Source: Shigella phage vB_SboS_Gloob. From it: 64,000 bases of DNA. The position numbers and the translations under genes were made by a program. The notes beneath the pieces were generated by a model, which worked only from the letters and a program-made list of their open reading frames with translations, ran no database searches and was not told the origin of the DNA. Below are positions 4,121 to 61,213 of this stretch, one piece after another (position 1 is the first letter of the stretch; the number at the start of each line of letters is the position of its first letter). The DNA is taken from sequence record OL615011; one strand, given 5' to 3'.

Positions 4121-4686
4121 TTACGTTCTCCGTAGAATTTAACGAACGGTGCCCAACCATCAAATGGATTGAGGAATTCGTAGTCCACTTCCATCTTATC
4201 AATGAAAGCCTCTATATCGTCCTCTATGATACCAGCGCGGTCGGCCTTTGAAATGCGGGTGATAGGACATTTCGTACTCAGCGCCCACTCATATTCCTGA
4301 GGGGTGCGCAGATCGCTCACGATATAATGTACATGAGGGTTCTGCTCCACCAGAGGAAGCTGGAAGCGCTTGAAGAATGCCAGGAACAGATCAGGCTGTA
4401 CGTAACGCAAGCCCGTATCGCTGCCGAGATGAAGCCAGATCTGCCGTGGGGTTAAGCCCTTGGGGTTATCAGGGTGGATGTAAGGAACGTCCTTCACGGC
4501 ATCCTCTACCTCCGCTGGCAGCCACGGGTAAATGTAGTTGGCGACCCGGCGCAGTTCATCTGAGAACGAAAGGCGCTGGATATCCATATCACCCTGTAGA
4601 TGGTGATAGCTGATGAGGGACTCCAAACAGAAGTCCTTACCGGAGCGCTTGCGCCCCGTAAAGAATTCAAGGTTCGGGTACATCAT
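4117..4686 (-). CDS. deoxynucleoside monophosphate kinase (T4 gp1 family)
   Basis: 189 aa; P-loop GRKRSGKD characteristic of T4-type dNMP kinases; start/stop overlaps with neighbours. Confidence 0.7.
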   Translation of the reverse strand: MMYPNLEFFTGRKRSGKDFCLESLISYHHLQGDMDIQRLSFSDELRRVANYIYPWLPAEVEDAVKDVPYIHPDNPKGLTPRQIWLHLGSDTGLRYVQPDLFLAFFKRFQLPLVEQNPHVHYIVSDLRTPQEYEWALSTKCPITRISKADRAGIIEDDIEAFIDKMEVDYEFLNPFDGWAPFVKFYGERK

Positions 4687-5729
4687 ACCACACCTTCCAG
4701 GAACTTAGGATCAACAATCTTGCGGTCAACCGGAGAATGGGTGAGCGCAATGTTCAAACCATGATCCTGAATCCGGTTCATGTTGATGAGCTTATCGTTC
4801 AGTTTGCAGTACAGGCAGTATGCCATTTGCATGATCAAGCCACGATCAGCATCATATTCCTTCAGGTGAGCAACCAAAGTTTCCCACGGGCTACCGATAT
4901 CACAATGATGAAGTACACCAGTGAACAGATTGCGGATATGGTTCTGGTTGGTCACGTTCTTGAAGTGGATCATGGAGTTGATGAACCCAGCTTCTACTTT
5001 GGTGTCCTTCGTGATCTTACCCAGCTGCTTCTGGCTGACTTCATTGTTGTAGTAATGAAGATTGTTGGAGAAGAGCTTGTACTGACCGACATCAACATCC
5101 AGCACCTGAGCAATCACTTCTTGAAGAATAGAGAACTCAATGAAGTTGATTGAACTCATACCCCACAGAACATCTTGCGAGCGGTTGATGACCGTCAGGT
5201 TCAGGCGACCTTCAACGATGGCGAACAACAGAGCCAGGTTACACACCATGTCTTTAGTCTTCGCTTCGCCACTCTCGCTGAACTTCGCCAGGCCAGCATC
5301 TGAATCCAGAGCCGGGTCATAGATGGTGAGGTACGCCTGGCGAGTGTTTGGGTTCTTGCGCAGACGGTTGATGACGCTATCCAGCTGGCCATGGGCGTAC
5401 AGACGCGGACCATAAGCGGCTCGCCATGTTACCCCATCATCCGAAAAGTTAGCAGCGCGAGGCAATACGCGTGACAGGAACTTTATGTCGTTGCGGCCTG
5501 ACAACACCCAGAAGGTCTCCCCAATAGCTGCGATAGCCGATGAGTTGCGACCTTCAACGGAGAGCCAGCGGTCACGAATATCGGAAACAGTGATCGTCAC
5601 ACCATCAAGGAAGCGGGTGCCGTCCGTGTTGATCTCCGCGTTACCAGGGTCCGACTCAATCCCGTATTCGCGGATAGCCAAGACAGCCTGTTTCAGCATG
5701 TCATTGTTGTTAATTGCTTTGATTTCCAT
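4683..5729 (-). CDS. thymidylate synthase-family pyrimidine hydroxymethylase (dUMP or dCMP hydroxymethylase candidate)
   Basis: 348 aa; TS-fold motifs ETFWVLSGRN (cf. ELLWFLKG), nucleophile Cys in VCNLALLF, NRSQDVLWG (cf. YQRSxDxxLG); lacks canonical ThyA PCHxxxQF context. Confidence 0.7.
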   Translation of the reverse strand: MEIKAINNNDMLKQAVLAIREYGIESDPGNAEINTDGTRFLDGVTITVSDIRDRWLSVEGRNSSAIAAIGETFWVLSGRNDIKFLSRVLPRAANFSDDGVTWRAAYGPRLYAHGQLDSVINRLRKNPNTRQAYLTIYDPALDSDAGLAKFSESGEAKTKDMVCNLALLFAIVEGRLNLTVINRSQDVLWGMSSINFIEFSILQEVIAQVLDVDVGQYKLFSNNLHYYNNEVSQKQLGKITKDTKVEAGFINSMIHFKNVTNQNHIRNLFTGVLHHCDIGSPWETLVAHLKEYDADRGLIMQMAYCLYCKLNDKLINMNRIQDHGLNIALTHSPVDRKIVDPKFLEGVV

Positions 5730-6403
5730 TAATCGATACTCCCAAAATCACGACAGAGGAATGCCATTACAGCCTGGTCTACTGTTAGACCGTGAGACTT
5801 CATCATACCTGCGGCCACCGTAGGGAACAAGCCTTTATGGCGCTGGCGATGGTCTTGAACACGCTCCCACTTCTCTACCACGAGGCTTTCATTGAAGTCC
5901 GCGCCGCCGTTGCGTGATTTAACACGGGCGATGCACGTTTCAAGAGGGGTGTCCATGAAGAGAACAACCAGTTCGCGCGGTGGGCGCGTCAGGCGGGGGA
6001 TCCAGGAACTCAGTAGAGTTGAAGGGATGATGCCTTCGAAGATCACATCGTATACCTGATATTCAGGTAGATCAGCGATGCTCAGGGCGAAGAGCATTTG
6101 TTCAGTGTCCTTCAGGGAATCAACTCCCTTGGACTTTGACTTGTCATATTTGCCGATACACACCACGTTGAATGACGGGCAGACCGTCAACATAATCTTG
6201 CCGTCATGTGTCACAACATACGCCTGAGGATCCCTCTCCGCCAGCTGAGACGGTACGGTGGATTTGCCGCTACCATTGGAGCCTTTGACGTAATAGAGTT
6301 GCCCTCGTGCTGGGTAGATCCCCTTTACGACGGGTGGTTTAATGAATGTGTGGACGGGGCGCTTGAGCAACCCCTTGAGGGAGTAGGACATAGACTGCTC
6401 CAA
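5729..6403 (-). CDS. P-loop kinase (candidate 5-hydroxymethyl-pyrimidine DNA or nucleotide kinase)
   Basis: 224 aa; Walker A GSNGSGKST; first gene of the overlapping operon. Confidence 0.45.
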   Translation of the reverse strand: MEQSMSYSLKGLLKRPVHTFIKPPVVKGIYPARGQLYYVKGSNGSGKSTVPSQLAERDPQAYVVTHDGKIMLTVCPSFNVVCIGKYDKSKSKGVDSLKDTEQMLFALSIADLPEYQVYDVIFEGIIPSTLLSSWIPRLTRPPRELVVLFMDTPLETCIARVKSRNGGADFNESLVVEKWERVQDHRQRHKGLFPTVAAGMMKSHGLTVDQAVMAFLCRDFGSID

Positions 6404-6465
6404 TAAACAAAAGGAGCTGCTATTATAGCAGCCCCTTCATCTATTGAACAGCTTCTGAACTTAAA

Positions 6466-7331
6466 TTACGCGGCGGCTTTCGCTTCGGCCAGCGCCTGAG
6501 GCAACCATGCGTTGATTGCTTTGACCAGAGACTCAGCATCGGCCTCTTTGATCTTCTGGCGTTTGGTGAAGGACTTGCCGTTCACGTACAGACTGAAGCC
6601 CCAGCCGCCGGAAACGATAGGCGCGACGTCAACGTATGTGTTGGTGCGGGCGTGCAGGTTTTCAGGGTTGGCCAGTTCGGTGACCGGGAACTGGAACCAG
6701 CGCATGTCTGGGTTCACGTAGCTCAGGAACACACCTGGGACAACTCCTGCTTCAATCGCAGCCAAGACCGGACCGTGGGTAGATGCACGGGCGGCGTCAA
6801 CCATTTCTTCACGTTTGGTATGACGGCGTTTACGCTCTTCCAGCGCCGCCTGCGGGGTCAGGGTCTTACCCTTCGCCGCTTCTTTCAGCATAGAAGACGC
6901 CAGGGAACCTACTTTCGCGTCGGACGGCTGATTACCTTCTTCCAGCGCTGCGTTGACTGCGTCTTTAACCGCGTCTACCGGGGCGTCAGACACTGGGGCT
7001 TCACCTGCGTCGGCGTTACCAGCACCAGCGGTTGCGTCGGCAGAGATCGGCGCTTCAGCATCAACGGTTTCAGCGTCTTTCAGGGATACTTCAGCGTGGG
7101 CTTGCTCTTGGGCTTGCGCCAGAGCCTGCTGAGTTTCTTCCTTCTCTTCAGCGCTCAGACCTTCAATCAGTTCGAAGCCGTTGGCGGACTGAAGAACGCC
7201 TTCCACCATACGGCGCAGGGTAACGTTGCCGATCATCAGGCCTGCTTCTTTGATTTCAGCCTGGATAGCCGTAACGTCTTTGCCTTCAATTTCAATTTTG
7301 GTTCCAGAATCTACATGAAGAATATATGACA
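6466..7331 (-). CDS. hypothetical protein with acidic Ala-rich low-complexity linker
   Basis: Likely start MSYILHVDSG; central Ala/Glu/Asp-rich segment; sigma70-like promoter upstream. Confidence 0.5.
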
Positions 7332-27867: not shown

Positions 27868-28221
27868 TTACGACAGCTGCTTCAGTTTGTAGATCGTCTG
27901 ATAGCACAGCGTCTTGATTTCATCAAGCGTGTTCTGAAGGTGGGAGTCGCACTGCCTGTAGATGCCATCGACGTCTATCACCACGCTGTTGACATAGGAG
28001 ATAGGGTCTGGGTTATAGAGCTTGATGTTCTCAAACGACGGAACGTACTGGCCACCCGCACCGATGTATGCTTCGGTAAACGTGTCCAGCAAGTCCTCCA
28101 GTTCCCCGTAGAACTCCCCGAGAGCTTTGTGCTTGGCGTAGGACGTTGTAACGAAGTGCAGGGCATGAGAGTGGGCTATAGCAAGCAGTCCACGGTTGAT
28201 GAAAATACTCGCGTTAACCAT
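27868..28221 (-). CDS. hypothetical protein
   Basis: 117 aa ORF. Confidence 0.4.
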   Translation of the reverse strand: MVNASIFINRGLLAIAHSHALHFVTTSYAKHKALGEFYGELEDLLDTFTEAYIGAGGQYVPSFENIKLYNPDPISYVNSVVIDVDGIYRQCDSHLQNTLDEIKTLCYQTIYKLKQLS

Positions 28222-28310
28222 GATTTGTTTCCTGTATTGTGAACCATCTAGTATTTAGTGTTAATGGGTCCATGAGGTACTATATAGAATAATATAACTG
28301 GAGAACGAAA

Positions 28311-28916
28311 ATGAAAACTTTTCAAGACTTTTTGACCGAAGCCGCGCCGCCGATGTCTGTTCATATCAAGGCAGACAAGATCGGCAAGTCCACCGAAGAC
28401 AATATCGGTACTTTCTTGCGAGTTAGTGTTAGTGGCGACAAAGCTACTTTTGAAACCCCAGACGGGCGCAAGATAATCCTGACCAATGCCAAAGACATCA
28501 TTTCCGCATCTGGCCTGAAAGATGGCCAGTTTGCCAGTGCCCAGATGATTGACAAGGTTGATACTGACACCGCTGTCAAGTACAACAAATCAGGCAAATA
28601 TATTGACTTGTTGGATGTCAAATCAGGTATGGGCAATTCCTTTATCTCCATTGACGGTAACAAGCAATGGAAAGAAATGACCGAAGGTGGTTGGTATGCG
28701 TATAAAGGCGGTCGCCCCGGCTTGGCTCGTTATAAGATCGCCATGGTTATGGGACCTCATGCGGGTATGCCATCTCCTGGGGAAGATATTGAATACGAGT
28801 TACCGAATGGCGGCAAAGAACGCGGAACCGTCATGAAACTGAATGGTGCATCCAAGCTGATGGACGTCAAAAACGAAAAAGGTAAGAAAGTACAAGTCAG
28901 TATGTATGTGAAATAA
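28311..28916 (+). CDS. internal head protein with capsid targeting sequence (IP-like)
   Basis: N-terminus MKTFQDFLTEA closely matches T4 IP capsid targeting sequence MKTYQEFIAE (prohead-protease site after Glu). Confidence 0.65.
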   Translation: MKTFQDFLTEAAPPMSVHIKADKIGKSTEDNIGTFLRVSVSGDKATFETPDGRKIILTNAKDIISASGLKDGQFASAQMIDKVDTDTAVKYNKSGKYIDLLDVKSGMGNSFISIDGNKQWKEMTEGGWYAYKGGRPGLARYKIAMVMGPHAGMPSPGEDIEYELPNGGKERGTVMKLNGASKLMDVKNEKGKKVQVSMYVK

Positions 28917-28920
28917 CAAA

Positions 28921-28940
28921 AACCCCGCCGAAGCGGGGTT
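28921..28940. terminator. bidirectional terminator between convergent IP genes
   Basis: AACCCCGC-CGAA-GCGGGGTT flanked by A-run and T-run. Confidence 0.65.
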
Positions 28941-28944
28941 TCTT

Positions 28945-29427
28945 TTATGGCTTGACCAGAGTCATCTTGACGGTTTCACCCGTGTCGGTGTCTGTCAGGG
29001 TCATGACGTCTTGTGCGTTCACAGACTTCACTTTCCCTTGTCGCTTGTCGCCGTTGCGGTTGTAGTAGTCGATCAGTTCGCCTTTGGTTGGGCGGCCAAC
29101 ATCGGTGATGTCATACTGGCCGCGCTTCCCCAGCGCCCGGTGATCCACGCCTTCGGTCTTTAGATTCTTAACCCCCTCCAGGAATGCTTTGAGTAGATCG
29201 CCTGGGATAGGGGGCAGCTTCAGCTTCTCGGCCAATTCCTGTGGCTCACCTTTGATGGTCGAACCACTAGGGGACTTGTGCCCGTAGAACGTACCAGGAG
29301 TCTTGCCTTGATAGATTGAATAGCTCGGACCTTTGCTGTCGTACACAAGGGAACAAGTCCATTCAGTCTTGACTAAACGCCAACCAACTTGCTTGACCTC
29401 CGTTAGGAAGTCCTGGAACCCTTTCAT
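28945..29427 (-). CDS. internal head protein with capsid targeting sequence (IP-like paralogue)
   Basis: N-terminus MKGFQDFLTEV. Confidence 0.6.
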   Translation of the reverse strand: MKGFQDFLTEVKQVGWRLVKTEWTCSLVYDSKGPSYSIYQGKTPGTFYGHKSPSGSTIKGEPQELAEKLKLPPIPGDLLKAFLEGVKNLKTEGVDHRALGKRGQYDITDVGRPTKGELIDYYNRNGDKRQGKVKSVNAQDVMTLTDTDTGETVKMTLVKP

Positions 29428-29435
29428 ACATCCCC

Positions 29436-30005
29436 CTAGACAGGCTTAACGCCGAGGAACTTGGCAATGTCAGCAGCCAGGTTTTTACCCTTGCTGATAT
29501 CCTGCTCCTTGCCGTTGCAGGTGACGATCACATACGGGTCATCTTCACCACCGAAGTTCACGGTGATCGCCTTGCCGATGCCAGGGATGCCAGAGTATTC
29601 GAACTCAGTGCGACCACTCTTGCGGGACTTGCCAACACCCAGTGCTTTACCGATCATCTTGTCCATGTTCGCCAGTTCCTGAGCATAGGCTTCGGTCACC
29701 TGGCCTTTGTCGGCAGACTTGCCAAAGAAGAATTCGAAGCCGTCATGGACAGCAACGACTTCCTGACCTTGGGAGATACCGTGAGTCTGGTCTGGGGTCA
29801 GCTTCACCTTGATGTTGTTGCCGTTGGTTAACTCCAGGTTGTAGACATCCGCCTGATTGTCAGGAGTGATCTGGGTCACGGTAGCACCGGAGCACCACTG
29901 AGTGCCGTCAGCTTGCTTGGTGATGGATACGCTTTTGCCCTGGACACCAGCATGGGTCTGAGGCTGAGCAGCTTGTTCTTTAAAGTATTGAAGGAACGGT
30001 TTCAT
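29436..30005 (-). CDS. internal head protein with capsid targeting sequence (IP-like paralogue)
   Basis: N-terminus MKPFLQYFKEQA; late promoter immediately upstream. Confidence 0.55.
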   Translation of the reverse strand: MKPFLQYFKEQAAQPQTHAGVQGKSVSITKQADGTQWCSGATVTQITPDNQADVYNLELTNGNNIKVKLTPDQTHGISQGQEVVAVHDGFEFFFGKSADKGQVTEAYAQELANMDKMIGKALGVGKSRKSGRTEFEYSGIPGIGKAITVNFGGEDDPYVIVTCNGKEQDISKGKNLAADIAKFLGVKPV

Positions 30006-30030
30006 CTTGAATCTCCTCGGGGATTTCAGT

Positions 30031-30038
30031 TATTTATA
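30031..30038 (-). promoter_or_regulatory. T4-type late promoter TATAAATA (minus strand)
   Basis: Plus-strand TATTTATA is TATAAATA on minus strand, about 25 nt upstream of IP gene start at 30005. Confidence 0.55.
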
Positions 30039-30056
30039 AGCCCCCGAAGGGGCTTT
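30039..30056 (-). terminator. terminator hairpin after large virion protein gene
   Basis: AAGCCCC-TTCG-GGGGCTT on minus strand. Confidence 0.45.
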
Positions 30057-30062
30057 AGATGA

Positions 30063-32441
30063 TCAGATCTTAATCTGCATGTTGCCGCCCAGGGACTGCT
30101 CATACTCACTGTATGCGCTCTCCCCGTCGTCTTTCGCCCACTGGTCAGACTGCTGGGCGCGAGCCAGAGTCATCAGGTTTGGTTCAGTCGGGTTGTAACC
30201 CTTGGACTTCGCATCCTGGTACAGAGTCTGCAGGTACTGGTTGGCGCGGTCAATCTGAGCTTTGAACTCGCGATATGCACCTTCAGTTGTATTGCGGCGG
30301 AAGGTGATATCCCAGTCCACGTTCAGAGTCTGACCATCACGGCTTGCATAGATCTGCCAATCCAGGTCGCGACCTTTTGGAGCGTTGTCGCGGATGGAAC
30401 CAGCGTATGTTGCAAGGTCAACACCAGTCTTCTTAGCAGTATCCGGTTCTTTATCCAGGCGTTCTGTTTCTTTGGACAGGATACCCAACATAAATTCATT
30501 GGTGCGGCGATCCGCCATGTCGTGCCCGCGCCAAAGGACTGAACCGTTGTTGTCAACAAAAATGTCGTCCAAAAATACTTGTTTCGGATTATGTGACGTG
30601 CTGTTCAGAGTTTGCATATTCCGAGATATCATTTCCATTTTAGAAGAAATTTCATCGATCACGGCCTGAACAATATCTTTCTTCAAAGGAAGTTCATATG
30701 TCTTCGGATTGTTCAACAGTCGCCCTTTCTGAGAGATCATCGGCGTGAACGCGACTTTTCCTTTGTCGTAGTAATAGGTCACATTCGTGGTCAATACAGC
30801 ACCATCATACTTCCCAGTTTTCGGGAAATTGACACCAGACCAAGTGATGGACATACCGTTGACAGTCTCACCAAACACCATGGCGTTGCGCGGCATCTTC
30901 AGGGTTCCAGAGTTGACCAGATCAGCGCCCTGGGCATTCAGGTCGATAGAACCATAGATGGTCCCGCTACGATCTTTCAGCATCAGGGTCTTGTCGCCCT
31001 TCTCTGGGATGATTTCCAGCAGGTGCTTGCCGCGCAGAGGCTCTTTGTTGAGTTCCAACAGAGCAGTGTTCCCTGGCTTCACACGATTCAGGACAGCGTC
31101 GGACACTTTCAGAGTCCAGTTTGCGGTTTCCACATAACCCCAGCCCTGAGAATGACGGATGGCCTTGATAGGGTATGGGGCACTCATTGGCACTGCGCTG
31201 ATTTCCCATTCGCCGCGATACTGATGTTCAGCGACGTATGTGATCGTTTCCATGATTTCGTTTGCCACCCGACGAGCATCGCCAGAGATGACACCAGGCT
31301 GAGTTTCGATTTCAGAGAACACGTTGTAGGTCAGATTCTTGCCATCGACTGAATCGAAGCTGACGATGATCACCAGACCACCTTTAGTTTGATAACGCGC
31401 CTGTCCGATCTTCTTAATGCTTTCCCCTGGGAGATAGCTTGCTTTCTGGTCAATGTTGGTATCAATGATACCCAGAACACGAGCGATGAAACCGCTGTCA
31501 CGCAATTGATCGATACTGGTTGCCCCGATTGTGGTGTTGGAGTCAGCTGGCGCGGTCTTCTGCTGAGAACCTTTCCAAAATTTTGTGGACGCCGTGGTGA
31601 AATCATTCAAGATACTGATAGGGACTTGCGGTAATTTCAACTGACGAGCAATGAAATCAGCACTTTGCCCACGCACAGATTTCTCATTCATGTATGCGCC
31701 AACATACACGCCTGGCTCATTGTAGTGGGGAGCGATATTTGCCGTGTTCATGCGGCCTCTCTCCTTACCAACCCATATCAACATGGGTTGATCCCCGTTT
31801 GAAGTTAATTTCCATCCGTTGGAATCATCAACAGAAGATGAAGCCCCCACATCTGGGGTATTGTCTTGAACCGGAACGTCACCGACCTTGTCTGGGTCAT
31901 CCCAGGTGATACCCTGCATCTTCGGACCGTCGAATACCTGAGCAGGATCTTTGCCCTTACGGACCAACCACACATAACCACGGTCGGGGACGGGCGCATA
32001 GGTCAGGTCCATGACGTTGAGTTTCTGCTTCAGACCGGACTGGCGGATGATCTTAGGAATCAGGGTCATCCCGCGTTCCAGCGCTTTCTTAGAGAAGTTG
32101 ACAGCATAGCCATCGATAGTCTTGCCAAGAGGGGTCGCCAGGAACTGCTTGGTAGCTTCGATCATGGAAGCAATAACGCGCATTGGGTTCTTGAAGCGAG
32201 CGATGGCATCAGGATAGACAGAGCCGCGCTTCTGGCCGATGAAGACCTGACGAACGTTCTTGCCCAGCCCCTGAGGGGTATAGAACTGAATGCGGTATTC
32301 CTTTTCATCTTCGTCGATGAAGGTGAAGAACACATCGCCTGCGTTCTTCTTGCCCATGGTCAGCTCATACGGAGCAGAGTTGAACGCTTCGTCCAACTGA
32401 TCCTTTTCCTGCATGAACTGAAGGAAATTTGGCTTTGACAT
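30063..32441 (-). CDS. large putative packaged/internal virion protein
   Basis: About 793 aa from MSKPNFLQFMQE, a loose capsid-targeting-like N-terminus; adjacent to IP paralogues; no catalytic motif recognised. Confidence 0.5.
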   Translation of the reverse strand: MSKPNFLQFMQEKDQLDEAFNSAPYELTMGKKNAGDVFFTFIDEDEKEYRIQFYTPQGLGKNVRQVFIGQKRGSVYPDAIARFKNPMRVIASMIEATKQFLATPLGKTIDGYAVNFSKKALERGMTLIPKIIRQSGLKQKLNVMDLTYAPVPDRGYVWLVRKGKDPAQVFDGPKMQGITWDDPDKVGDVPVQDNTPDVGASSSVDDSNGWKLTSNGDQPMLIWVGKERGRMNTANIAPHYNEPGVYVGAYMNEKSVRGQSADFIARQLKLPQVPISILNDFTTASTKFWKGSQQKTAPADSNTTIGATSIDQLRDSGFIARVLGIIDTNIDQKASYLPGESIKKIGQARYQTKGGLVIIVSFDSVDGKNLTYNVFSEIETQPGVISGDARRVANEIMETITYVAEHQYRGEWEISAVPMSAPYPIKAIRHSQGWGYVETANWTLKVSDAVLNRVKPGNTALLELNKEPLRGKHLLEIIPEKGDKTLMLKDRSGTIYGSIDLNAQGADLVNSGTLKMPRNAMVFGETVNGMSITWSGVNFPKTGKYDGAVLTTNVTYYYDKGKVAFTPMISQKGRLLNNPKTYELPLKKDIVQAVIDEISSKMEMISRNMQTLNSTSHNPKQVFLDDIFVDNNGSVLWRGHDMADRRTNEFMLGILSKETERLDKEPDTAKKTGVDLATYAGSIRDNAPKGRDLDWQIYASRDGQTLNVDWDITFRRNTTEGAYREFKAQIDRANQYLQTLYQDAKSKGYNPTEPNLMTLARAQQSDQWAKDDGESAYSEYEQSLGGNMQIKI

Positions 32442-32518
32442 TTTGTATCTCCTGATGGAATTATGGCGGTTTCTTCTAATTAGCGAAACCAAAAGAGAGC
32501 CGAAGCTCTCTTGTCAGA

Positions 32519-32890
32519 TCATGCCCAGGTGGATTTACTTACGGAAAGGTAGTGATCTTTAGACTCGATCAGTTCTTTACCGGATTTGACGATGGCGTCC
32601 ATGGAGTAGAATCCAATCTGGAACCCATCTTTCAGGAAGATCGTGTGGTGCATGTGGTCAACTGGCAAACCATTCACTGGGGAATTTTTGAAATTCCAAC
32701 CTTCAGCCAGGAATTTTGCGTGGACCGCTTTCATCGTAGCGTCGCGATCACCGTTTGTCATGATACCCATTTCAACGTTGTCTACCAAACCACGGTCAAC
32801 AATCTGACCTTCGAGGGTTACAACGCCGAAGCCAAGGGATTCAAGGATAGACATTTCTGGTTTGGTGAAATCTGTTTTGATCGCGTTCAT
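32519..32890 (-). CDS. hypothetical protein
   Basis: Likely start MNAIKTDF. Confidence 0.4.
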   Translation of the reverse strand: MNAIKTDFTKPEMSILESLGFGVVTLEGQIVDRGLVDNVEMGIMTNGDRDATMKAVHAKFLAEGWNFKNSPVNGLPVDHMHHTIFLKDGFQIGFYSMDAIVKSGKELIESKDHYLSVSKSTWA

Positions 32891-32997: not shown

Positions 32998-33636
32998 TTA
33001 CGGCGTTGGGTTCACCACAGGAATATGGAATCTGATCCCGGCGATGATATCCTTCAGCTGAGGCTTCCATCCATCCACCAAACGGGGGAGAGCGATAGCA
33101 CCAGGCTGAACTAAAATGATGTCGCTGCCTGTGATATTGTGCTGAGGGAACTGGGCAAGGTACTGCTCCATGGTGACACCCTCATCAATCAGAACCGCAC
33201 CGACGTCAGACGATGCGTAGGTTGCACCCAGACCGTCAACGCCCCACGCCAAGATGCCCCAGTCAGGGATGTTGGCTTCAGATGTGATGGTGAATCCAAA
33301 CACGGTGTTCAGCGAGGTGAAGGAATAGACATCGTGAGTTATGTCATACACCAGATACCCCTTGGCCAGCATATCGGCAAAGATCGCGTCCGTATCTCCC
33401 GCCGCCAGAGTCGGTACAGTAAACAACAGCTCGCCCTCAGGAGGGGCAGGATACGTGCCGAGGGCATAGAGGCACCATGCATCAATGCACTTCTTAATGA
33501 ACGCCTCGGGTGCGACGTAATCGGCAAGGCGCACAGTCCCCGAGTACTCGGATACGATGATTCCTTCCTTCGCGCCCTGTAGAGCGATGAAGACCAAGAT
33601 ATGTTCATATCCGGTCTGAGATGGAGTGATGTTCAT
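32998..33636 (-). CDS. hypothetical protein
   Basis: Likely start MNITPSQ overlapping upstream stop. Confidence 0.4.
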   Translation of the reverse strand: MNITPSQTGYEHILVFIALQGAKEGIIVSEYSGTVRLADYVAPEAFIKKCIDAWCLYALGTYPAPPEGELLFTVPTLAAGDTDAIFADMLAKGYLVYDITHDVYSFTSLNTVFGFTITSEANIPDWGILAWGVDGLGATYASSDVGAVLIDEGVTMEQYLAQFPQHNITGSDIILVQPGAIALPRLVDGWKPQLKDIIAGIRFHIPVVNPTP

Positions 33637-34250
33637 TATCTTGTCCTCTTCAGTTTCTCTATCGTGCGCTTGTTCATGGCGATCACCCGAGGATCTACCT
33701 CGGAGATGGTCCGGCCTTTGAAGGACACACATTTCTGAAGATATTTAGCTTTCTTCACGACGTCAGCGGCATAAGCGTTCGATGCGGGATTACGGGCGAA
33801 GCCAGCATTGTAAGAGGAGAGGGATTTGCGTACATTCTGCTTGTGATAGGTCAGCCAGAACTGCATCTCATCGAGGGCGGCTTGCGCGGCATATTCTTGG
33901 TCGGTCAGCAACTTTATGGCGACATTGGCATAGCACTTGCGATTCTTACAACCTTCGCGATCACCAACTGTCTTCACCTTGTTCTGAAAGGCTCCCATGT
34001 TGGCCGCCTTGAGACCGTAGCGCATTGACACTACATCTTCACCAGCACGGCTCTCTCGCCAAGATATGGCAGCCAGGGTGTAACCAAGATCTTGTGTCTT
34101 GCCTATGTGATAGGCAGTTGCCAGCGTATTAAGTTGTTGCTCAGAGAAATCATAAACACATTGACTTGTATTTTGGGAAGCGTGCACATTCCCGCTGGCA
34201 ATGGTAAAGGTCACGGACAAGGCCATGGCCTTCAACGTTGTCATCGTCAT
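33636..34250 (-). CDS. secreted/periplasmic protein with signal peptide
   Basis: N-terminal signal peptide MTMTTLKAMALSVTFTIASGNVHAS; several Cys. Confidence 0.5.
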   Translation of the reverse strand: MTMTTLKAMALSVTFTIASGNVHASQNTSQCVYDFSEQQLNTLATAYHIGKTQDLGYTLAAISWRESRAGEDVVSMRYGLKAANMGAFQNKVKTVGDREGCKNRKCYANVAIKLLTDQEYAAQAALDEMQFWLTYHKQNVRKSLSSYNAGFARNPASNAYAADVVKKAKYLQKCVSFKGRTISEVDPRVIAMNKRTIEKLKRTR

Positions 34251-34349: not shown

Positions 34350-34628
34350 TCATTCATAGATGAGGTGGTAGGATTCTTCGATGCACTCCAGCCAGCCGTA
34401 GACGAACTGTAGAGGGTCATCCCAGTCACACGCCTTGCCGATCGTGAACTGACCGTCTAGACAATCCCCGCGCTCGTAGAAGTTCACGGTGCCATCAATC
34501 GTGATAACGTTTCCAGTCTGCATCACTGCTTTGACACCAACCGCAACCTTGTGGTGTTTATGTTTCGCATTCCAGGTATCAGCAGCAATCTGGCCTGCCG
34601 AAAACAGTTCAACGTTGTCTTCTTTCAT
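34350..34628 (-). CDS. hypothetical protein
   Basis: 92 aa ORF. Confidence 0.4.
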   Translation of the reverse strand: MKEDNVELFSAGQIAADTWNAKHKHHKVAVGVKAVMQTGNVITIDGTVNFYERGDCLDGQFTIGKACDWDDPLQFVYGWLECIEESYHLIYE

Positions 34629-34939
34629 ACGTTTGTCTCAGGTGTTCAGTAAAGGATTTACCCAGCTTGCGGAATAGTTTAATACGACCAATGACTTTGA
34701 CGTAAACATCTCCGTGGCAGGGGCGTGGCTTACACCAGCACCCCAAGATCTTCCCGTCAAGCTCAAGGAGTTCATCCTCGGTGATATCCCCTTCAATCAG
34801 GCGCACATACAGGTCTTCTTCAAACAGTTCGATGCAGACGCCTCGTCCATGGTCTTTGACCTCGAACGGGTTCCCCCATTTACCAGGCCGACCAATGTAG
34901 ACATCGTATGGATCCTTCTTGAAGTGTACGACTTTCACA
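34609..34939 (-). CDS. DUF4326-like protein
   Basis: Motifs GRPGKWGNPF and GCWCKPRPCHGDV; probable GTG start overlapping upstream stop (ATGTGA). Confidence 0.45.
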
Positions 34940-35249: not shown

Positions 35250-37582
35250 TCCTTCTTGATAACTTCGGTCAGGCCGTTGCGCAGGCCATAGCGGATGTTG
35301 TGAGGGAAGTACTCTTGGAACTCCTGCTCACGCTGACTGATGACAAACAGGTTGTTCCCGCCGAACTTATGCTTCAGCATCTCAACCGATTCCTGCACCC
35401 CGCGCTCGCTCATGTTCTCAAGGATTTCGTCCAGGACAAACAGGTTACATTGCACCGATGCCTTGAGGTTAGCCACGTCGCGCAGAGCCAGTGTCACAGC
35501 CAGGTTCAGGCGGCTCCGCTGGCCAGTAGACAGGGAGAAGATGCTCTGCCCCTTGCGACCTGCTGCACTCATGGTGATCTCAAAGGTATCGTCAACAACG
35601 ATGTCCAGGAACATGTTGAGGGCTTCAAGATACTCGTTGATCTTGCTATTGAGGAATGGCAAGTACAGGGCGATGATGCGCGCCTTGGTCTGGTCATCCT
35701 TCAAGAAGAACAGCAGGTGCTGTAAGTCCTGGAGTTCCTCATCTGCATCTTCACGGAGTTCATACAGAGCCTCCAGTTCACCTTCCAATGCAGCGATAGA
35801 GTTCTCCAGGTCGGCGGTAGGCGTCGGCTGTACAGCCAGTTTACGCTCCAGATCGGCAATGGACGCCACGAGAGGAGCACGACGGGCTTTCAGCTCGGCG
35901 ATCTTATCATCGACGGCTTTAATCCCGCTGACGGCATTCTCTCGCGTCTGTTGCAGCGACGCAGTGATGTCTTCAAAACGAACGTTCAGCGCCTTGCGGA
36001 TGTCAAGGATCTTCTGTTGGCATTCACGGTTCAGCGAATTACACTCAATCGTGGCCGCTTCATGGAACCCCTGAATGTCACGGTGCAGCTGCTTGATGTT
36101 GTCAACGATTTCGTCGGCCTGCTTGCGCATTGCATCCAGTTCGGCATCTAACACAGCAATGTCAGCAACCAGCTTGTCGTCCTGAGCCTTGTGACCATCA
36201 ATCAGGGCGGTGACATCGGCAGTGACCTTATCCAGCTGATCCAACTTCGCCTGCAGTTCCTGTATCTGAGGGTTGTACTTGCTCTCAATGCGCGCCTTGG
36301 TATCATCAGACACCAGCTGGGTGCATGTTGGGCAAGTCCCCATATCGTGGAAGCGCTTGATGGCCGCTTGATGACCATCCATTTCTGTTTGGAAACGGAT
36401 ACGGAAGTTCTCACCCTGTTGGCGGCGCTGGATAGCAGCGTTCAGAGTGTCCAGGTTGGCGTTGCGTTCGGTGAGCAGGGTGTTCTTGCTCTCGGCTACT
36501 GTAAAGGCGCGGTCGCGCAATACCTGGAGATCATGCTCCGCAGTAGACACTTCGATGCGCTCATAATCGTCAGCCTTGTCCTGAGCGGCATCCTTCACCG
36601 CCTGGATCTTGGTATCAAAGTCTTTCTTGACAGCCTCGATCTCCACCATGGATTCGTCATGAAGGCGGCTTTCCACCGTCTTCATTTCCTGAGTGGCTTC
36701 GAATTCCACGGCAGTGAGACGGGTGCGCTCCTCATTCTGCGCGGCAATGTCAGCGTCCAGCGATACCAGGGCTTCCTGTTGCTGTACAAGGATATCGGCC
36801 GACTGCTGTTGGATAAGGGCATTGGATTGCTCTATCTGCTGCAGCTGCGTCTTCTTGTTGGTGTGGTCAACAACCTTCAACGCACATTCATTCGCGATCG
36901 TGTCCAGCTTTTCGTTCGCTTTCTTGATGGATGCCTTGACATCTTCGTTCATCAGGCTGAAGAAGCCCAAGTCCCAGATAGTCTCCACCATCGCGCGACG
37001 GTCGGCGGTGTACATCTCCGTGAACGGAATGAACTTCTCTTTGCCCAGCACCAGAGAGTTCTCAAACATCTTCTGGTCCACGCCGATGAGGTTCACGATG
37101 TACTTGTTCATGTCGGCTTTGGCTGCTTCATTATCGATCTGCAACCACTTGCCGTCCACCATCTGGTAGACTTCAACAAAGTCAGGTTTAATGCCACGGC
37201 GAACCTTCCATTCGCTACCACGGCAGGCAAACTCCACCTCACCCACACATTCCTTGCGGCTCTGTGAGTTTACCAGGCCTGCCTTCTTCTCCTTCTTACT
37301 GTACGTGTCGTTGTACAGTACGAAGAACAGCAGCCACACCAGCATCGTGGATTTACCCGCGCCGTTATCGTCAGACGTGACGAGGGTAGCCGGGTTGCGC
37401 TGGTAATCAATCTCCATGAACTGATTACCGATGGAGCGGAAGTTCTTGGCGCGGCCTTTGCGGAAGGTCAGTTTGTGCGTAATGTTGTCACGCACTTCAA
37501 ATGGGACTTCGACCTCAACCGGAGTGTCGGCTTCCTTCAAAAGATTGCCAAATTTGGCCAGGATATCTGTGCTCTGAGTCAT
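35246..37582 (-). CDS. 46: recombination ATPase gp46 (Rad50/SbcC-like)
   Basis: 778 aa; Walker A NGAGKST, long coiled-coil, C-terminal signature SLSTGQRSRL and Walker B FVLDE. Confidence 0.9.
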   Translation of the reverse strand: MTQSTDILAKFGNLLKEADTPVEVEVPFEVRDNITHKLTFRKGRAKNFRSIGNQFMEIDYQRNPATLVTSDDNGAGKSTMLVWLLFFVLYNDTYSKKEKKAGLVNSQSRKECVGEVEFACRGSEWKVRRGIKPDFVEVYQMVDGKWLQIDNEAAKADMNKYIVNLIGVDQKMFENSLVLGKEKFIPFTEMYTADRRAMVETIWDLGFFSLMNEDVKASIKKANEKLDTIANECALKVVDHTNKKTQLQQIEQSNALIQQQSADILVQQQEALVSLDADIAAQNEERTRLTAVEFEATQEMKTVESRLHDESMVEIEAVKKDFDTKIQAVKDAAQDKADDYERIEVSTAEHDLQVLRDRAFTVAESKNTLLTERNANLDTLNAAIQRRQQGENFRIRFQTEMDGHQAAIKRFHDMGTCPTCTQLVSDDTKARIESKYNPQIQELQAKLDQLDKVTADVTALIDGHKAQDDKLVADIAVLDAELDAMRKQADEIVDNIKQLHRDIQGFHEAATIECNSLNRECQQKILDIRKALNVRFEDITASLQQTRENAVSGIKAVDDKIAELKARRAPLVASIADLERKLAVQPTPTADLENSIAALEGELEALYELREDADEELQDLQHLLFFLKDDQTKARIIALYLPFLNSKINEYLEALNMFLDIVVDDTFEITMSAAGRKGQSIFSLSTGQRSRLNLAVTLALRDVANLKASVQCNLFVLDEILENMSERGVQESVEMLKHKFGGNNLFVISQREQEFQEYFPHNIRYGLRNGLTEVIKKD

Positions 37583-37583
37583 G

Positions 37584-38699
37584 TTATGCGTCCAGTTTGT
37601 TCAGGCGTTGTTGGGCAGCATTGTAGAAGTGCTCTGCAAGTTTACAGACGTTTTCAGGGCGCTGGATGTTGTTCCCGGCGCGGATATCCTTCTTCAGGAC
37701 TTCCACTGCATCGGTTGCCACCATCTCTTCGGTGACCTCAACCTTCTCAGCCGCCACGGTGATAGTCCGGTCGATGAAGTTGTAGTCAATGCACTTGCAG
37801 CGCTTCATGGCATCACAGAACTTTTCATAATGCTTAGCATTGTCGCGGTTCTGTACGATAACCTTAACGATTTGCCCTTCAATACCCAAGCCTGTGTTCA
37901 GCCATTCTGGGTCGATCCAGTTACCCTCATCGTCTGAGGACAACTTGGTGTAGTCATACTCCACATAGCGGAACAACGTCTGGTGCTCGCTGTTGGGGAT
38001 GAATACCTCTCCGCCGCGCATGTCGTCCACATAGAAGCCACGGTTGGTGCCGTCTTTGTAGTCTTCCCAATTCAGGTGATACGGAGTCCCAAGATACTGA
38101 ATGTTACCTTCCATCGAACGGGTATGGAAATGCCCCGTGTCGACCCTGTCAAACTTGGAAAGGAGCGCAACGTCGATCTGACCGTGATCACAAGTAGAGG
38201 ACTGGTACATTTTGAACCCCGCCAACTCCAGATGCGCAAAACAGTACTTGGCGTCCGTAGCGTGTATCGCCGCAATAGATGCATCGTAGTTTTCCTTATT
38301 GATCCACGGTAGGAGCAGAGTCTTGACACCCTCGATCATCACTTCGGTCGGTTCGCTGTAGTAGCAGTACACATCTGGGTCGAGTTCGTTCAGGTAGGAT
38401 GGCCAGTTGATGCGGTTGGACTCTTCCAGGGTGATGTCGTGGTTGCCAACAATGCCATTCCACTTGATACCAGCCTCTTTCAGCGCCGGAGTCAGCTCAT
38501 CTTTCAACCAGTCCTTGTCACGACCGTACATGAATTTGCGGACATCAAATGTGTCACCAAACTGCCACACCTCATGGATGTCGGAGGCGACAAGTTCAGG
38601 GATGAAATAATTGATGAGGTAGTTCTTGATGAAGTCGCGAACGTAACGGGAACCATTACGGCTCCCGATATGCAGATCGCCGATTTTAGCAATCGCCAT
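37584..38699 (-). CDS. 47: recombination nuclease gp47 (Mre11/SbcD-like)
   Basis: 371 aa; phosphoesterase motifs DLHIG and GNHD. Confidence 0.9.
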   Translation of the reverse strand: MAIAKIGDLHIGSRNGSRYVRDFIKNYLINYFIPELVASDIHEVWQFGDTFDVRKFMYGRDKDWLKDELTPALKEAGIKWNGIVGNHDITLEESNRINWPSYLNELDPDVYCYYSEPTEVMIEGVKTLLLPWINKENYDASIAAIHATDAKYCFAHLELAGFKMYQSSTCDHGQIDVALLSKFDRVDTGHFHTRSMEGNIQYLGTPYHLNWEDYKDGTNRGFYVDDMRGGEVFIPNSEHQTLFRYVEYDYTKLSSDDEGNWIDPEWLNTGLGIEGQIVKVIVQNRDNAKHYEKFCDAMKRCKCIDYNFIDRTITVAAEKVEVTEEMVATDAVEVLKKDIRAGNNIQRPENVCKLAEHFYNAAQQRLNKLDA

Positions 38700-44976: not shown

Positions 44977-45294
44977 TTATTTTTGAAATCCGACAAAGTC
45001 CTGGGCAATCCCCCGACAATACATCAGGTCTTTCTTCGTTTGTGGGCTGTTTTCGGCCGCAGACATCATCATTGGTAGGTCCAGCGCATTCTCTATCTGA
45101 TCAACACTGAACAGATCAAGGCGCTTCAGCTCTCCCTCGAAGTCAGACAGGAGGATAGATGTATCTTTGTCGTCCGGATGGAATTGCTGATACGTCTCCA
45201 TCCAGGCGGCGCAGGTATTCAGTTTAGACGGTGGTGTGGCGTTTACACACCCGGCCATCAGTAACAGCAGGAGTAGGATTTTACCTTTCATCAC
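44977..45294 (-). CDS. outer-membrane lipoprotein (o-spanin-like candidate)
   Basis: Lipobox LLLLLMAGC; 105 aa; start overlaps upstream gene. Confidence 0.45.
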   Translation of the reverse strand: MMKGKILLLLLLMAGCVNATPPSKLNTCAAWMETYQQFHPDDKDTSILLSDFEGELKRLDLFSVDQIENALDLPMMMSAAENSPQTKKDLMYCRGIAQDFVGFQK

Positions 45295-59475: not shown

Positions 59476-60519
59476 TCACTTCCACTTGATGTTGAGCATG
59501 ACGTTTGTCAGGAAAAACACAGCATGCAGCCAGACATCGCCGACCTGACGGTGTTCAATCTGAGACTGACCACATACGCATACCAGATCAGGGATAGACT
59601 CATTCTGAACCAGCATCGGCTTCTCTTTATCCTGTGGTACACAGAACTGGAAGAAGCGGGAATAGAAGTCTTCGGTGATGTAGTTCTGGTTGTCAGTCAC
59701 CCACTGCTTCATGCCAGCCCAGTCATTGCCTTTCAGCATATCAACCAACACACCCATGTCGGCAGATTTCAATACGGCGAGGGCGCGTTCATCGATCTTG
59801 CCGTAGGTGGTGACGTTATCCTGTAGGGCACCCATGATGCGGCGGTTATCGGGGAAATGACGTTTGACAATAGCAGCCAACACAGGAGGGTCATACTCAA
59901 CACCTTCGCTGCGAAGGATTTCAGCACAGCGGCGCATGAACTGAAGTTTTACCTCATCAGCCTCGGTCTCATTCCAGATAAAGTCGATTTCACGACAACG
60001 AGAACGCAAAGGTTCGTTCACGCGCTGCTTGGCGTTGGTGGTCAGGATGAACGAGCAGTTCTTGGAGACCTTCTCCACAATACCCTTCAGCGACTCCTGT
60101 GCCGCCATAGACAGACGCTCTACTTCGTCGAGGATAACGACTTTGCGACCACCGAATACACTCACACCAGTAGAGTACTGAATCACGCGGTCACGGATAA
60201 CGTCGATGCTGTTGTCCAGGGATGCGTTGATCATCAGTGGTTGCTTACAGCCGATTTCATTACACACGGCCAGGGCAGAGGTAGTCTTGCCAGTACCAGG
60301 CTGAGGGGAGTAGAACAGCATAGACGGGATGTTGCCGTTGCCGCTGGTAATGTAGCCATGGATTTTAGCGCGGACGTCTTGAGGGATGATGATCTCGTCC
60401 AGGTTGTCAGGGCGGTACTTGTTTTCCCATGCGTACTGGTCGGAAACGATAGTGATATTAGACATTTCAGCCTCGTGTAGAAGAATCATTTCAAATGGGC
60501 GGGAAACCCCCGCCCACAC
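59476..60519 (-). CDS. 44: clamp loader large subunit gp44 (AAA+ RFC-like)
   Basis: Walker A PQPGTGKTT, Walker B ILDEVE, sensor motifs; likely start MSNITIV. Confidence 0.9.
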   Translation of the reverse strand: MWAGVSRPFEMILLHEAEMSNITIVSDQYAWENKYRPDNLDEIIIPQDVRAKIHGYITSGNGNIPSMLFYSPQPGTGKTTSALAVCNEIGCKQPLMINASLDNSIDVIRDRVIQYSTGVSVFGGRKVVILDEVERLSMAAQESLKGIVEKVSKNCSFILTTNAKQRVNEPLRSRCREIDFIWNETEADEVKLQFMRRCAEILRSEGVEYDPPVLAAIVKRHFPDNRRIMGALQDNVTTYGKIDERALAVLKSADMGVLVDMLKGNDWAGMKQWVTDNQNYITEDFYSRFFQFCVPQDKEKPMLVQNESIPDLVCVCGQSQIEHRQVGDVWLHAVFFLTNVMLNIKWK

Positions 60520-60544
60520 ATTATAACATCAGGCTGGAGATTGA

Positions 60545-61213
60545 TTACTCAATCTGTGCGCCGACGAAGTAATTGATCGTCGCGTCGGATGATTGGAAGT
60601 TCACCATCTGCAGCTCAGCGCAGGCACGCAGAGTGTAGTTGCCTTCGATCATCTTCAGGTTAGCAACGTCCAGTGGCATGACGAAGTCCGGCAGCGCGGT
60701 TTCACCCAGCTCAACGGTGTAGTTGTTGGAGTTGTCCAGGGTAGTGGTGGTTGCAACCAGGCGAGTTTTGCCACCCTGAGCAACCAGGCGCACAGTCTTG
60801 TGACCGAGGGTAGAACAGGCGCGGGTCAGTTCTTTCATCTTCTCTGGAGTGATGATCGCTTCAAAGTCGACAGACGGCAGTTCAATGGTGTCAGCCGGAA
60901 CAACAGTGAGTTCTTTAGCAGAACGCCAGAATTGCAGCTGAGAGCTTTCGCCTTTCAACAGGATGTAGTCCTGATGGAATTCGGCTTTACCGCCTTTGAA
61001 GGAAGGCAGGCGCTGGATGGCCAGAAGTTTGGTCAGGTCCAGGATAGGGAACTCAAACGGGAAGTCTTCTTCGATCTGAGCCACGGCGATAACAGTAGAC
61101 GAATCGTTAATGCTGCGCAGCATCTTACCCGGTGTCAGAACGATAGATGGGTTGATGGTCTCAAAGTTGGCCAGCAACTGGAGTGTACGTTCGGAGAGAG
61201 TGATCTCTTGCAT
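60545..61213 (-). CDS. 45: sliding clamp gp45
   Basis: 222 aa; size and N-terminal similarity to T4 gp45; adjacency to gp44/62. Confidence 0.8.
   Translation of the reverse strand: MQEITLSERTLQLLANFETINPSIVLTPGKMLRSINDSSTVIAVAQIEEDFPFEFPILDLTKLLAIQRLPSFKGGKAEFHQDYILLKGESSQLQFWRSAKELTVVPADTIELPSVDFEAIITPEKMKELTRACSTLGHKTVRLVAQGGKTRLVATTTTLDNSNNYTVELGETALPDFVMPLDVANLKMIEGNYTLRACAELQMVNFQSSDATINYFVGAQIE

Follow-up and report, generated by a model that had tools for sequence, protein, structure and literature searches.

Organization of the locus

The subject of this analysis is a cluster of four genes, here called A to D, at positions 28311–32441 of a 64-kb stretch of DNA from Shigella phage vB_SboS_Gloob (the window, by which the whole of the analyzed stretch is meant). 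Their protein products all open with a short leader resembling the capsid targeting sequence (CTS) of the internal head proteins of phage T4. Megablast of positions 28000–32600 matched 274 phage records, the best ones all belonging to the Ackermannviridae, with 97.5–98% identity to Shigella phages Ag3 and MK-13 (both Agtrevirus) and ∼82–84% identity to Kuttervirus Salmonella phages; the D protein is 100% identical to GLOOB_92 of vB_SboS_Gloob. By its sequence, the window is thus assigned to an Agtrevirus (Ackermannviridae) genome. The Ackermannviridae are distant T4 relatives with a T4-like core of replication and morphogenesis functions, and their DNA carries a 5-NeOmdU-type thymidine modification, the DNA of T4 being modified with glucosyl-hmC.

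Gene A (201 aa; 28311–28916, plus strand) encodes a protein with the N-terminus MKTFQDFLTEA, the leader proper, MKTFQDFLTE, being encoded at 28311–28340. The other three genes lie on the minus strand: B (160 aa; 28945–29427), with the N-terminus MKGFQDFLTEV and the leader MKGFQDFLTE at 29398–29427; C (189 aa; 29436–30005), with the N-terminus MKPFLQYFKEQA and the leader MKPFLQYFKE at 29976–30005; and D (792 aa; 30063–32441), with the N-terminus MSKPNFLQFMQEKDQLDEAF and an ATG start codon that follows AGGAG. Each of the four ATG codons is preceded by a Shine–Dalgarno sequence. The initial annotation had proposed one plus-strand and two minus-strand leader genes together with a large neighbor, and its coordinates, strands and N-termini were all confirmed. 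For D, the mechanically delimited open reading frame (ORF) reaches a TTG at 32492, and the Gloob record starts the gene at this codon, giving an 809-aa version; as the TTG sits at the foot of a terminator-like hairpin (32493–32512, minus strand), the longer version is unlikely. A terminator scan and the sequence context assign this hairpin to the gene upstream of D, which it separates from D. Where the convergent genes A and B meet (28918–28943), a further hairpin has terminator-like matches on both strands and is read as a bidirectional terminator.

The late promoter that had been proposed just upstream of one of the leader genes was also found, as an exact match to the T4-type box TATAAATA at 30031–30038 on the minus strand, directly after the terminator hairpin of D and 26 nt upstream of the ATG of C. 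The window has three copies of the box, where 0.54 would be expected. Because the start codon of B stands only 8 nt past the stop codon of C, the two genes are probably co-transcribed, and the box would drive both. Five of 21 related loci show the same arrangement, with TATAAATA immediately after the D hairpin and ∼30 nt ahead of the C homolog; the Kuttervirus loci have GCTAAATAC in its place and other loci have AATTA-type variants, and the Ackermannviridae may have a late-promoter consensus less strict than the T4 one. Homologs of the late transcription proteins gp55, gp33 and gp45 are encoded by Ag3 (PMC3121705).

N-terminal leaders

The four proteins open with the pattern M-K-x-F-x-[DEQ]-[FY]-[LF]-x-E, which in D is displaced by two residues and accompanied by a second, L-D-E, site. 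When the six frames of the window were searched with this pattern as a regular expression, A–D were the only matches among M-start ORFs of 50 aa or more. In T4, the internal proteins (IPs) encoded by ipII and ipIII begin with MKTYQEFIAEA and the product of ipI with MKTFKEFTSTT (NC_000866); protein A shares 7 of 11 residues with the former, and all four differences are conservative. To place this resemblance on a scale, the first 11 residues of 1,827 candidate ORFs, drawn from ∼162 kb of DNA of this phage type (the window and the remaining ∼94 kb of the MK-13 genome), were scored without gaps against the T4 tag using BLOSUM62. A obtained the highest score of all (42), B ranked third (31) and C ninth (18), against a background of −2.5 ± 6.7; the tag of T4 IPI itself scores 29, below A. 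The match of the leaders to the T4 tag exceeds chance, and the N-terminal likeness to T4 IPs that had been noted initially survives proper alignment.

Conservation of the leaders follows the functional map of the T4 tag. Among 25 distinct ten-residue leaders of small proteins from relatives, M1, F4 and E10 were invariant, position 7 was F or Y (H once), position 8 was L, F or I, and positions 3, 5 and 9 were free; this set was gathered with the motif pattern, so that the invariance is partly built in. The leader was also kept in every homolog found via body similarity, which is independent of the pattern. The first 10 residues of T4 IPIII suffice for packaging, residues 4 and 7 mainly serving targeting and residues 8 and 10 processing (review, PMC9026906), and the corresponding determinants (F4, F/Y7, L/F8 and E10) are all present in A, B and C. 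Because the conserved positions are those mapped functionally in T4, we read the leaders as T4-type tags. Cleavage is predicted after E10, which stands in an [L/F/M]-x-E context, and would expose A11 in A, V11 in B and Q11 in C. The leader is predicted to be helical in both AlphaFold models, the helix spanning residues 4–10 in the model of B.

The shared N-terminus could in principle be something other than a signal: a shared translation-initiation region, a recombination hotspot or an uncleaved structural helix, its T4 likeness being convergent. The leaders are short, and their coding DNA could be where recombination takes place in the module shuffling described below. However, the codons of the leaders differ among A, B and C, so that conservation acts at the amino-acid level, and it falls on the residues that function in T4, with a Glu in the same [L/F/M]-x-E context as gp21 sites. 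Homologs of the proteins are found in virions, moreover, and a cognate protease and scaffold are encoded in MK-13. Taken together, these points make an explanation of this kind extremely unlikely.

As the window does not include the head gene module, the assembly machinery was examined in MK-13, which is ∼98% identical across the locus. Its genes follow the T4 order of portal, two small core proteins, protease, scaffold and capsid, with Pfam matches to Peptidase_S77 (gp21 family, 2e-30), to the T4_CASP scaffold (gp22 family, 5e-44) and to Gp23 (5e-124); an N-L-G-E↓S site stands immediately ahead of the Gp23 domain of the capsid protein, at residue 51. MK-13 accordingly has both the gp21-type protease and the gp22-type scaffold that characterize a T4-type IP system.

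Leader-like sequences were also observed outside the cluster. The second-best match to the T4 tag (score 34) belongs to a 65-aa gene of MK-13, MKTFGDFIAEWDG (record 60512–60709, minus strand), which lies inside a tRNA cluster; T4 ipI likewise adjoins the tRNA cluster of T4. A 77-aa gene of MK-13, MKGFQDFLED... (record 34578–34811, minus strand), adjoins an Ig-domain (Hoc-like) structural gene, has Asp at position 10 and shows no clear Shine–Dalgarno sequence. In T4, a tag with Asp at position 10 allows packaging and blocks cleavage. Within the window, a 74-aa ORF that begins METYQQFHPDD (44977–45201, minus strand) scores 27 but has neither Glu10 nor a Pfam match, and may be a chance match. Finally, the MK-13 prohead core protein in the gp68 position (36121–36426 of its stretch) carries F-A-D-F-L-A-S-R-M-D-E near its N-terminus, and the MK-13 scaffold protein (37148–38020 of its stretch) has a leader-like beginning, MKPELQKLFE; the two stretches hint at a common core-binding helix.

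Virion association of homologs in related phages

Published virion mass spectrometry data on two relatives, LIMEstone1 and Sajous1, cover homologs of C, of D and of a 79-aa form of B. The set of confirmed structural proteins of LIMEstone1 includes ORF080, the homolog of C, and ORF081 and ORF082, which together represent D split by a frameshift and were identified with 23 and 4 peptides, respectively (55% coverage). The reference records of Ag3 and LIMEstone1 divide D into two to three ORFs (positions 4149–6528 and 4416–6012 of their stretches), apparently owing to frameshifts that mask a full-length protein. Two further proteins, ORF078, detected in LIMEstone1 virions, and ORF085, also a confirmed structural protein, were mapped via the annotated record and correspond to a DUF5856 protein and a DUF7270 protein, respectively, encoded on either side of the cluster. 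In Sajous1 virions, gp214 (D) is among the five most abundant proteins with 196 spectra, followed by gp215 (C) with 32, gp216 (the 79-aa form of B) with 20 and gp217 (DUF5856) with 10 (PMC10892097); the mapping of these proteins to genes was checked against the genome record. Packaging of the cluster proteins is well supported; by analogy with T4, they would reside inside the head.

A different account of the same operon has been published. The authors of the Sajous1 study interpreted gp214 as a tail completion protein, and they proposed that the operon encodes a tail-borne 'Ferrojan horse' (PMC10892097). On this view, gp214 (D), gp215 (C), gp216 (the 79-aa protein) and gp217 (the ferritin-like DUF5856 protein) would be tail or baseplate proteins that carry iron or molybdate for a 'Ferrojan horse' route of entry. 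Yet tonB and feoB mutants were infected normally by Sajous1 (PMC10892097), D shows no homology to known tail completion or terminator families, and a tail operon would leave both the leaders and the relationship of D to T4 Alt (see below) unaccounted for. We therefore consider this account very unlikely and offer the internal-head-protein interpretation as an alternative to it. In the open-access literature on these phages (the Ag3, CBA120, LIMEstone, Sajous1 and 2024 Ackermannviridae review papers), neither capsid targeting sequences nor internal head proteins are mentioned for the Ackermannviridae, and no open-access full text was found in which 'capsid targeting sequence' and 'Ackermannviridae' occur together.

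Modular bodies of A, B and C

The initial annotation described A, B and C as three paralogs. This description holds for A and B, which share a C-terminal domain (Smith–Waterman z = 6.2 against shuffles for the bodies without leaders), but not for C, which has the leader alone in common with them and an unrelated body (z < 1 against A or B). A, B and a 79/80-aa protein that stands in for B in Ag3, S117, XF4, LIMEstone1 and Sajous1 are united by the leader and by a C-terminal domain of ∼65 residues with 18 invariant columns. B can be described as the 79-aa leader-barrel protein with a module of ∼80 residues, module X (about aa 12–88), inserted directly after the leader, the Tudor/SH3-like barrel occupying about aa 100–160. 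In the AlphaFold2 model of B (predicted local distance difference test score, pLDDT, of 78), module X is well predicted, with two helices and four strands, and is joined by a disordered linker to the barrel, which has five strands and superposes on Tudor domains with deviations of 1.0–1.6 Å over ∼45 residues. The Tudor/SH3-like barrel is a generic fold that often binds nucleic acids or peptides.

The same parts recur in other combinations. Metagenomic relatives comprise proteins with the leader and X alone (93–94 aa), with the leader and barrel alone (89 aa) and with the leader, X and a different C-terminus (142 aa), as well as one in which a C-type leader and the C-terminal half of C are joined to the barrel (169 aa). 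Gene content was compared across 21 IMG/VR loci anchored on C: all 21 contain C and 20 contain D, each with its leader, while the third slot is taken by a protein of 79, 80 or 142 aa or is empty, and A is sporadic. C is likewise present with its leader in all GenBank loci examined (MKTFLEFFTEQ in Klebsiella phages), and A occurs in 14 GenBank phage records (Agtrevirus, Kuttervirus and Taipeivirus), compared with 356 for D. Because the same leader fronts unrelated or recombined bodies, the comparisons indicate that the leader is the constant element of these proteins and that the cargo behind it is shuffled.

The bodies themselves do not resemble those of the T4 proteins. Smith–Waterman comparison against shuffles gave no similarity between A–D and T4 IPI, IPII or IPIII (z < 1.1 for IPI with all four). 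The fold of T4 IPI consists of two β-sheets flanked by terminal helices (PMC3012670); the model of B matches Tudor/SH3-like barrels and not the IPI-type fold. C matches phrog_4048, a family of unknown function. Sub-threshold matches of A–D to Myosin_N, TOBE, TruB-C_2 and T4SS-DNA_transf in Pfam and PHROGs searches were taken as noise and led to no functional assignment.

Protein D and the T4 Alt family

The initial annotation had placed a large virion protein with a looser CTS-like N-terminus beside the leader genes. The size (792 aa) and the motif were borne out, and the identity of the protein can be refined to the T4 Alt family, albeit without the ADP-ribosyltransferase (ART) domain. Comparison of the N-termini of 120 close homologs and 89 distant representatives delimits a propeptide at aa 1–18, MSKPNFLQFMQEKDQLDE (32388–32441, minus strand), composed of a CTS-like F-L-x-F-M-x-E and an invariant predicted cleavage site, L-D-E↓A-F-N-S-x-P-Y, at which processing would leave A19 as the new N-terminus. 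It is followed by an N-terminal domain (aa 19–190; 31872–32387, minus strand), defined by invariant alignment columns and by hhalign to the Alt N-terminal domain, and by a C-terminal part (aa 191–792 and the stop codon; 30063–31871, minus strand) built of β-sheet-plus-helix modules in series. Close homologs range from 531 to 1208 aa; the N-terminal domain (aa 15–190) is nearly invariant among them, and insertions and deletions of a cassette type occur at about aa 198/208, 298/307, 500 and 668. In the C-terminal part, Pfam detected no recognizable enzyme and no ADP-ribosyltransferase domain (PF03496). Module X of B gave z = 5.7 with aa 207–295 of D by Smith–Waterman comparison, and the two are probably related, although BLASTP found no modules of A, B or C inside D homologs.

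An exhaustive HMMER search with aa 1–199 of D returned 93 representative clusters (50% identity) of proteins of 279–1677 aa; word-indexed homolog searches returned only five matches for this domain and seven for B. The domain is N-terminal in all 93 clusters and opens with [L/I/V]-x-E-[A/S]-F-[N/D]-S-x-P-Y after a variable propeptide of 0–50 residues. PF03496 (ADP-ribosyltransferase exoenzyme) is present in 7 of the 89 members scanned, 6 of which are matched directly by the catalytic region of T4 Alt, and one of the 89 has a weak ATLF match; most of the cargos have no recognizable enzymatic domain. T4 Alt is laid out alike, with an N-terminal region for which there is no Pfam model followed by PF03496 at 374–614. 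In an hhalign comparison, a profile of 84 D-type N-terminal domains matched one built from the Alt N-termini of nine Straboviridae (T4, RB69, Thanatos-2, Aeromonas L9-6, Konradin, Ac42, Serratia SP1, Klebsiella K65 and Yersinia P8) with 95.5% probability and E = 1.6e-8 over 159 colinear columns; reversed and column-shuffled controls gave E = 0.04–0.7. When the D-family hidden Markov model and hhalign were run against the single sequence of T4 Alt, the matches were weak and unconvincing.

The alignment of the two families begins at the cleavage motif (Q-L-D-E↓A-F-N-S in D, L-N-E↓V-F-D in the Alt family). According to GenBank X15811, T4 Alt loses its first six residues, MELITE; a review gives seven, and adds that the C-terminus is also processed, that ∼40 copies are present per head, and that Alt is packaged into the head, processed by gp21 and ejected (PMC9026906). 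On the profile comparison, D and T4 Alt have homologous N-terminal domains, cleavage site included, and that of D would serve as a head-packaging or retention module. The structural model of this domain is poor (pLDDT < 50) because the underlying alignment is nearly invariant. Profile comparison of D with the sequences of the PDB yielded bromodomain matches at chance level only.

These relationships identify the Alt N-terminal domain as a carrier that accompanies many cargos other than ART. We tentatively extend this to a broader proposal, which is possible rather than probable: the domain would be a general capsid-loading and delivery module, and the family a polymorphic one in which a cleavable propeptide and the domain carry interchangeable cargos (∼8% of them ADP-ribosyltransferases) and, in the Ackermannviridae, work with the small CTS-led proteins, themselves assembled from exchangeable modules of a like kind, as a toolbox of injected effectors, probably for counter-defense or host takeover. 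If this is true, the injected effectors would be suited to phages with 5-NeOmdU-modified DNA. A comparable layout is found in the MuF polymorphic head proteins and phage polyvalent proteins (PMC5512222, PMC9503650), where a conserved head-associated N-terminal domain is joined to variable C-terminal effectors presumed to be delivered with the DNA; unlike these, the carrier of D is the Alt N-terminal domain and not MuF, and no Pfam model covers it.

Proposed mechanism and function

The claim that the locus encodes head-packaged proteins with T4-type capsid-targeting leaders is well supported by the conserved leader positions, the module swapping behind them, the virion mass spectrometry of relatives and the machinery of MK-13. 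We consider it likely, with some confidence, that the cluster is an internal-head-protein cluster working like the IPI/IPII/IPIII and Alt system of T4. Late in infection, the four proteins would be made with an N-terminal amphipathic leader, M-K-x-F-x-D/E-F/Y-L/F-x-E, which in D is longer and ends in L-D-E. During prohead construction, the leader, in D together with the Alt-type N-terminal domain, would dock each protein on the gp22-type scaffolding core, and the gp21-type S77 prohead protease would then cut after Glu to give the N-termini A11 (A), V11 (B), Q11 (C) and A19 (D). The mature proteins would remain in the capsid with the DNA and exit via the tail into the host at infection. For A and B, which are basic and Lys-rich and have the Tudor/SH3-like barrel, the probable binding partner is either DNA or an early host target; D would be an Alt-family carrier in which the ADP-ribosyltransferase has been exchanged for other modules. 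Location in the head, cleavage and ejection are here proposed by analogy with T4, and the activities of the cargo are likewise proposals; given the leaders and the Alt relationship of D, it is very probable that the proteins are delivered into the host with the DNA.

The likeness to the T4 IPs extends from the ten-residue leader, with aromatic residues at positions 4 and 7, an aliphatic one at position 8 and Glu at position 10, to small, mostly basic and Lys-rich proteins in which a constant leader precedes mutually unrelated bodies, differences in gene content among related phages, late expression, and a gp21-type protease with a gp22-type scaffold; the extra leader gene in the tRNA cluster of MK-13 also has its parallel in the position of ipI beside that of T4. 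The present cluster differs in belonging to the Ackermannviridae, with 5-NeOmdU-type rather than glucosyl-hmC DNA, in the absence of body similarity, its cargo being made up of shuffled modules (X and the Tudor/SH3-like barrel), and in having four leader genes side by side, for which processing and ejection are predicted. In the case of Alt, the N-terminal domains are homologous, the motif [L/I]-x-E↓x-F-[D/N] at the domain start aligns with the Alt processing site, and both families consist of large virion proteins laid out as propeptide, N-terminal domain and cargo; D differs in lacking the ADP-ribosyltransferase domain.

Several observations weigh against this interpretation. The mass spectrometry comes from homologs in relatives and shows association with the virion rather than location in the head, and it bears on the 79-aa form of B, not on A or the 160-aa B. 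The DUF5856 and DUF7270 neighbors, which have no leader, are also found in the virions of relatives, so that proteins of this region can associate with the virion in the absence of a leader. C resembles the T4 tag less closely (score 18, rank 9) than A and B do. The exact TATAAATA box has no counterpart at A or D and stands before the C/B unit only. Lastly, the N-terminal domain of D is not significantly similar to Alt by pairwise BLASTP, and the link between them depends on the profile–profile comparison.

Even if the proteins are packaged as in T4, their job might be a physical one: as abundant basic proteins, they could neutralize and organize the packed DNA or act as components of the assembly core, any ejection being incidental. 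The composition of the small proteins agrees with such a role. Mature A (20.7 kDa, pI 9.3, 12.6% Lys) is close to T4 IPIII in size and charge, mature B has a pI of 9.3 and the 79-aa protein one of 9.35, and all three, with 12–13% Lys, resemble T4 IPII and IPIII in charge; lysines of T4 internal proteins touch DNA phosphates (PMC3012670), and the barrel common to the three proteins is a fold frequent in nucleic-acid binders. The position of D among the most abundant Sajous1 virion proteins and the near-universal presence of C and D in the relatives examined fit as well. On the other hand, A is confined to 14 records, the small slot is either empty or filled by a protein of 79, 80, 142 or 160 aa, and whole cassettes are exchanged in D; such turnover suits conflict-driven accessory genes better than a housekeeping function in packing. 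Mature C, moreover, is mildly acidic (pI 5.9), and relatives of D bear toxin-type ART domains. We regard a purely physical role as rather unlikely for the cluster as a whole. The patchy occurrence of A, the turnover of the small slot, the cassette construction of D and the ART domains of its relatives instead point towards a conflict-driven effector role, although for A and B, basic and rich in Lys, a role in DNA packing is equally open. The initial annotation had named the products as candidate counter-defense proteins; an IPI-like anti-restriction activity cannot be claimed for them: with no similarity of the bodies to any T4 IP, activity against GmrSD is not to be assumed.

On this reading, head loading of the T4 type, with its leader, scaffold core and gp21 cleavage, reaches into the Ackermannviridae, phages that are widely used in the biocontrol of Salmonella, E. 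coli O157, Shigella, Klebsiella and Dickeya. In these phages, the genes of the cluster carry annotations such as hypothetical or 'structural', or are mistaken for tail genes. As candidate injected proteins, present before any phage gene is expressed, the products would have the right timing to act against host defenses. With the ten-residue tag, it could also be possible to bring foreign proteins into the capsids of Ackermannviridae, a practice already established for T4.

Genes flanking the cluster

The DUF5856 gene directly adjoins the cluster (27868–28221, minus strand) and encodes a leaderless ferritin/Dps-like protein that is annotated in homologs as a 'starvation-inducible transcriptional regulator' or MobD.6. 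On the other side, the DUF7270 gene (32998–33636, minus strand; E = 5.6e-112), also without a leader, is the homolog of LIMEstone1 ORF085; its mechanically delimited ORF runs upstream to 33732 and overlaps the next gene. The protein encoded there (33636–34250, minus strand) has a signal-peptide-like N-terminus, and its homologs are annotated as 'putative RegB' or 'RNA endonuclease'. The RegB annotation looks doubtful; the protein has a near-threshold match to a lytic transglycosylase (SLT) domain (E = 3.7e-4), and its Sajous1 homolog, gp211, is represented by 31 virion spectra.

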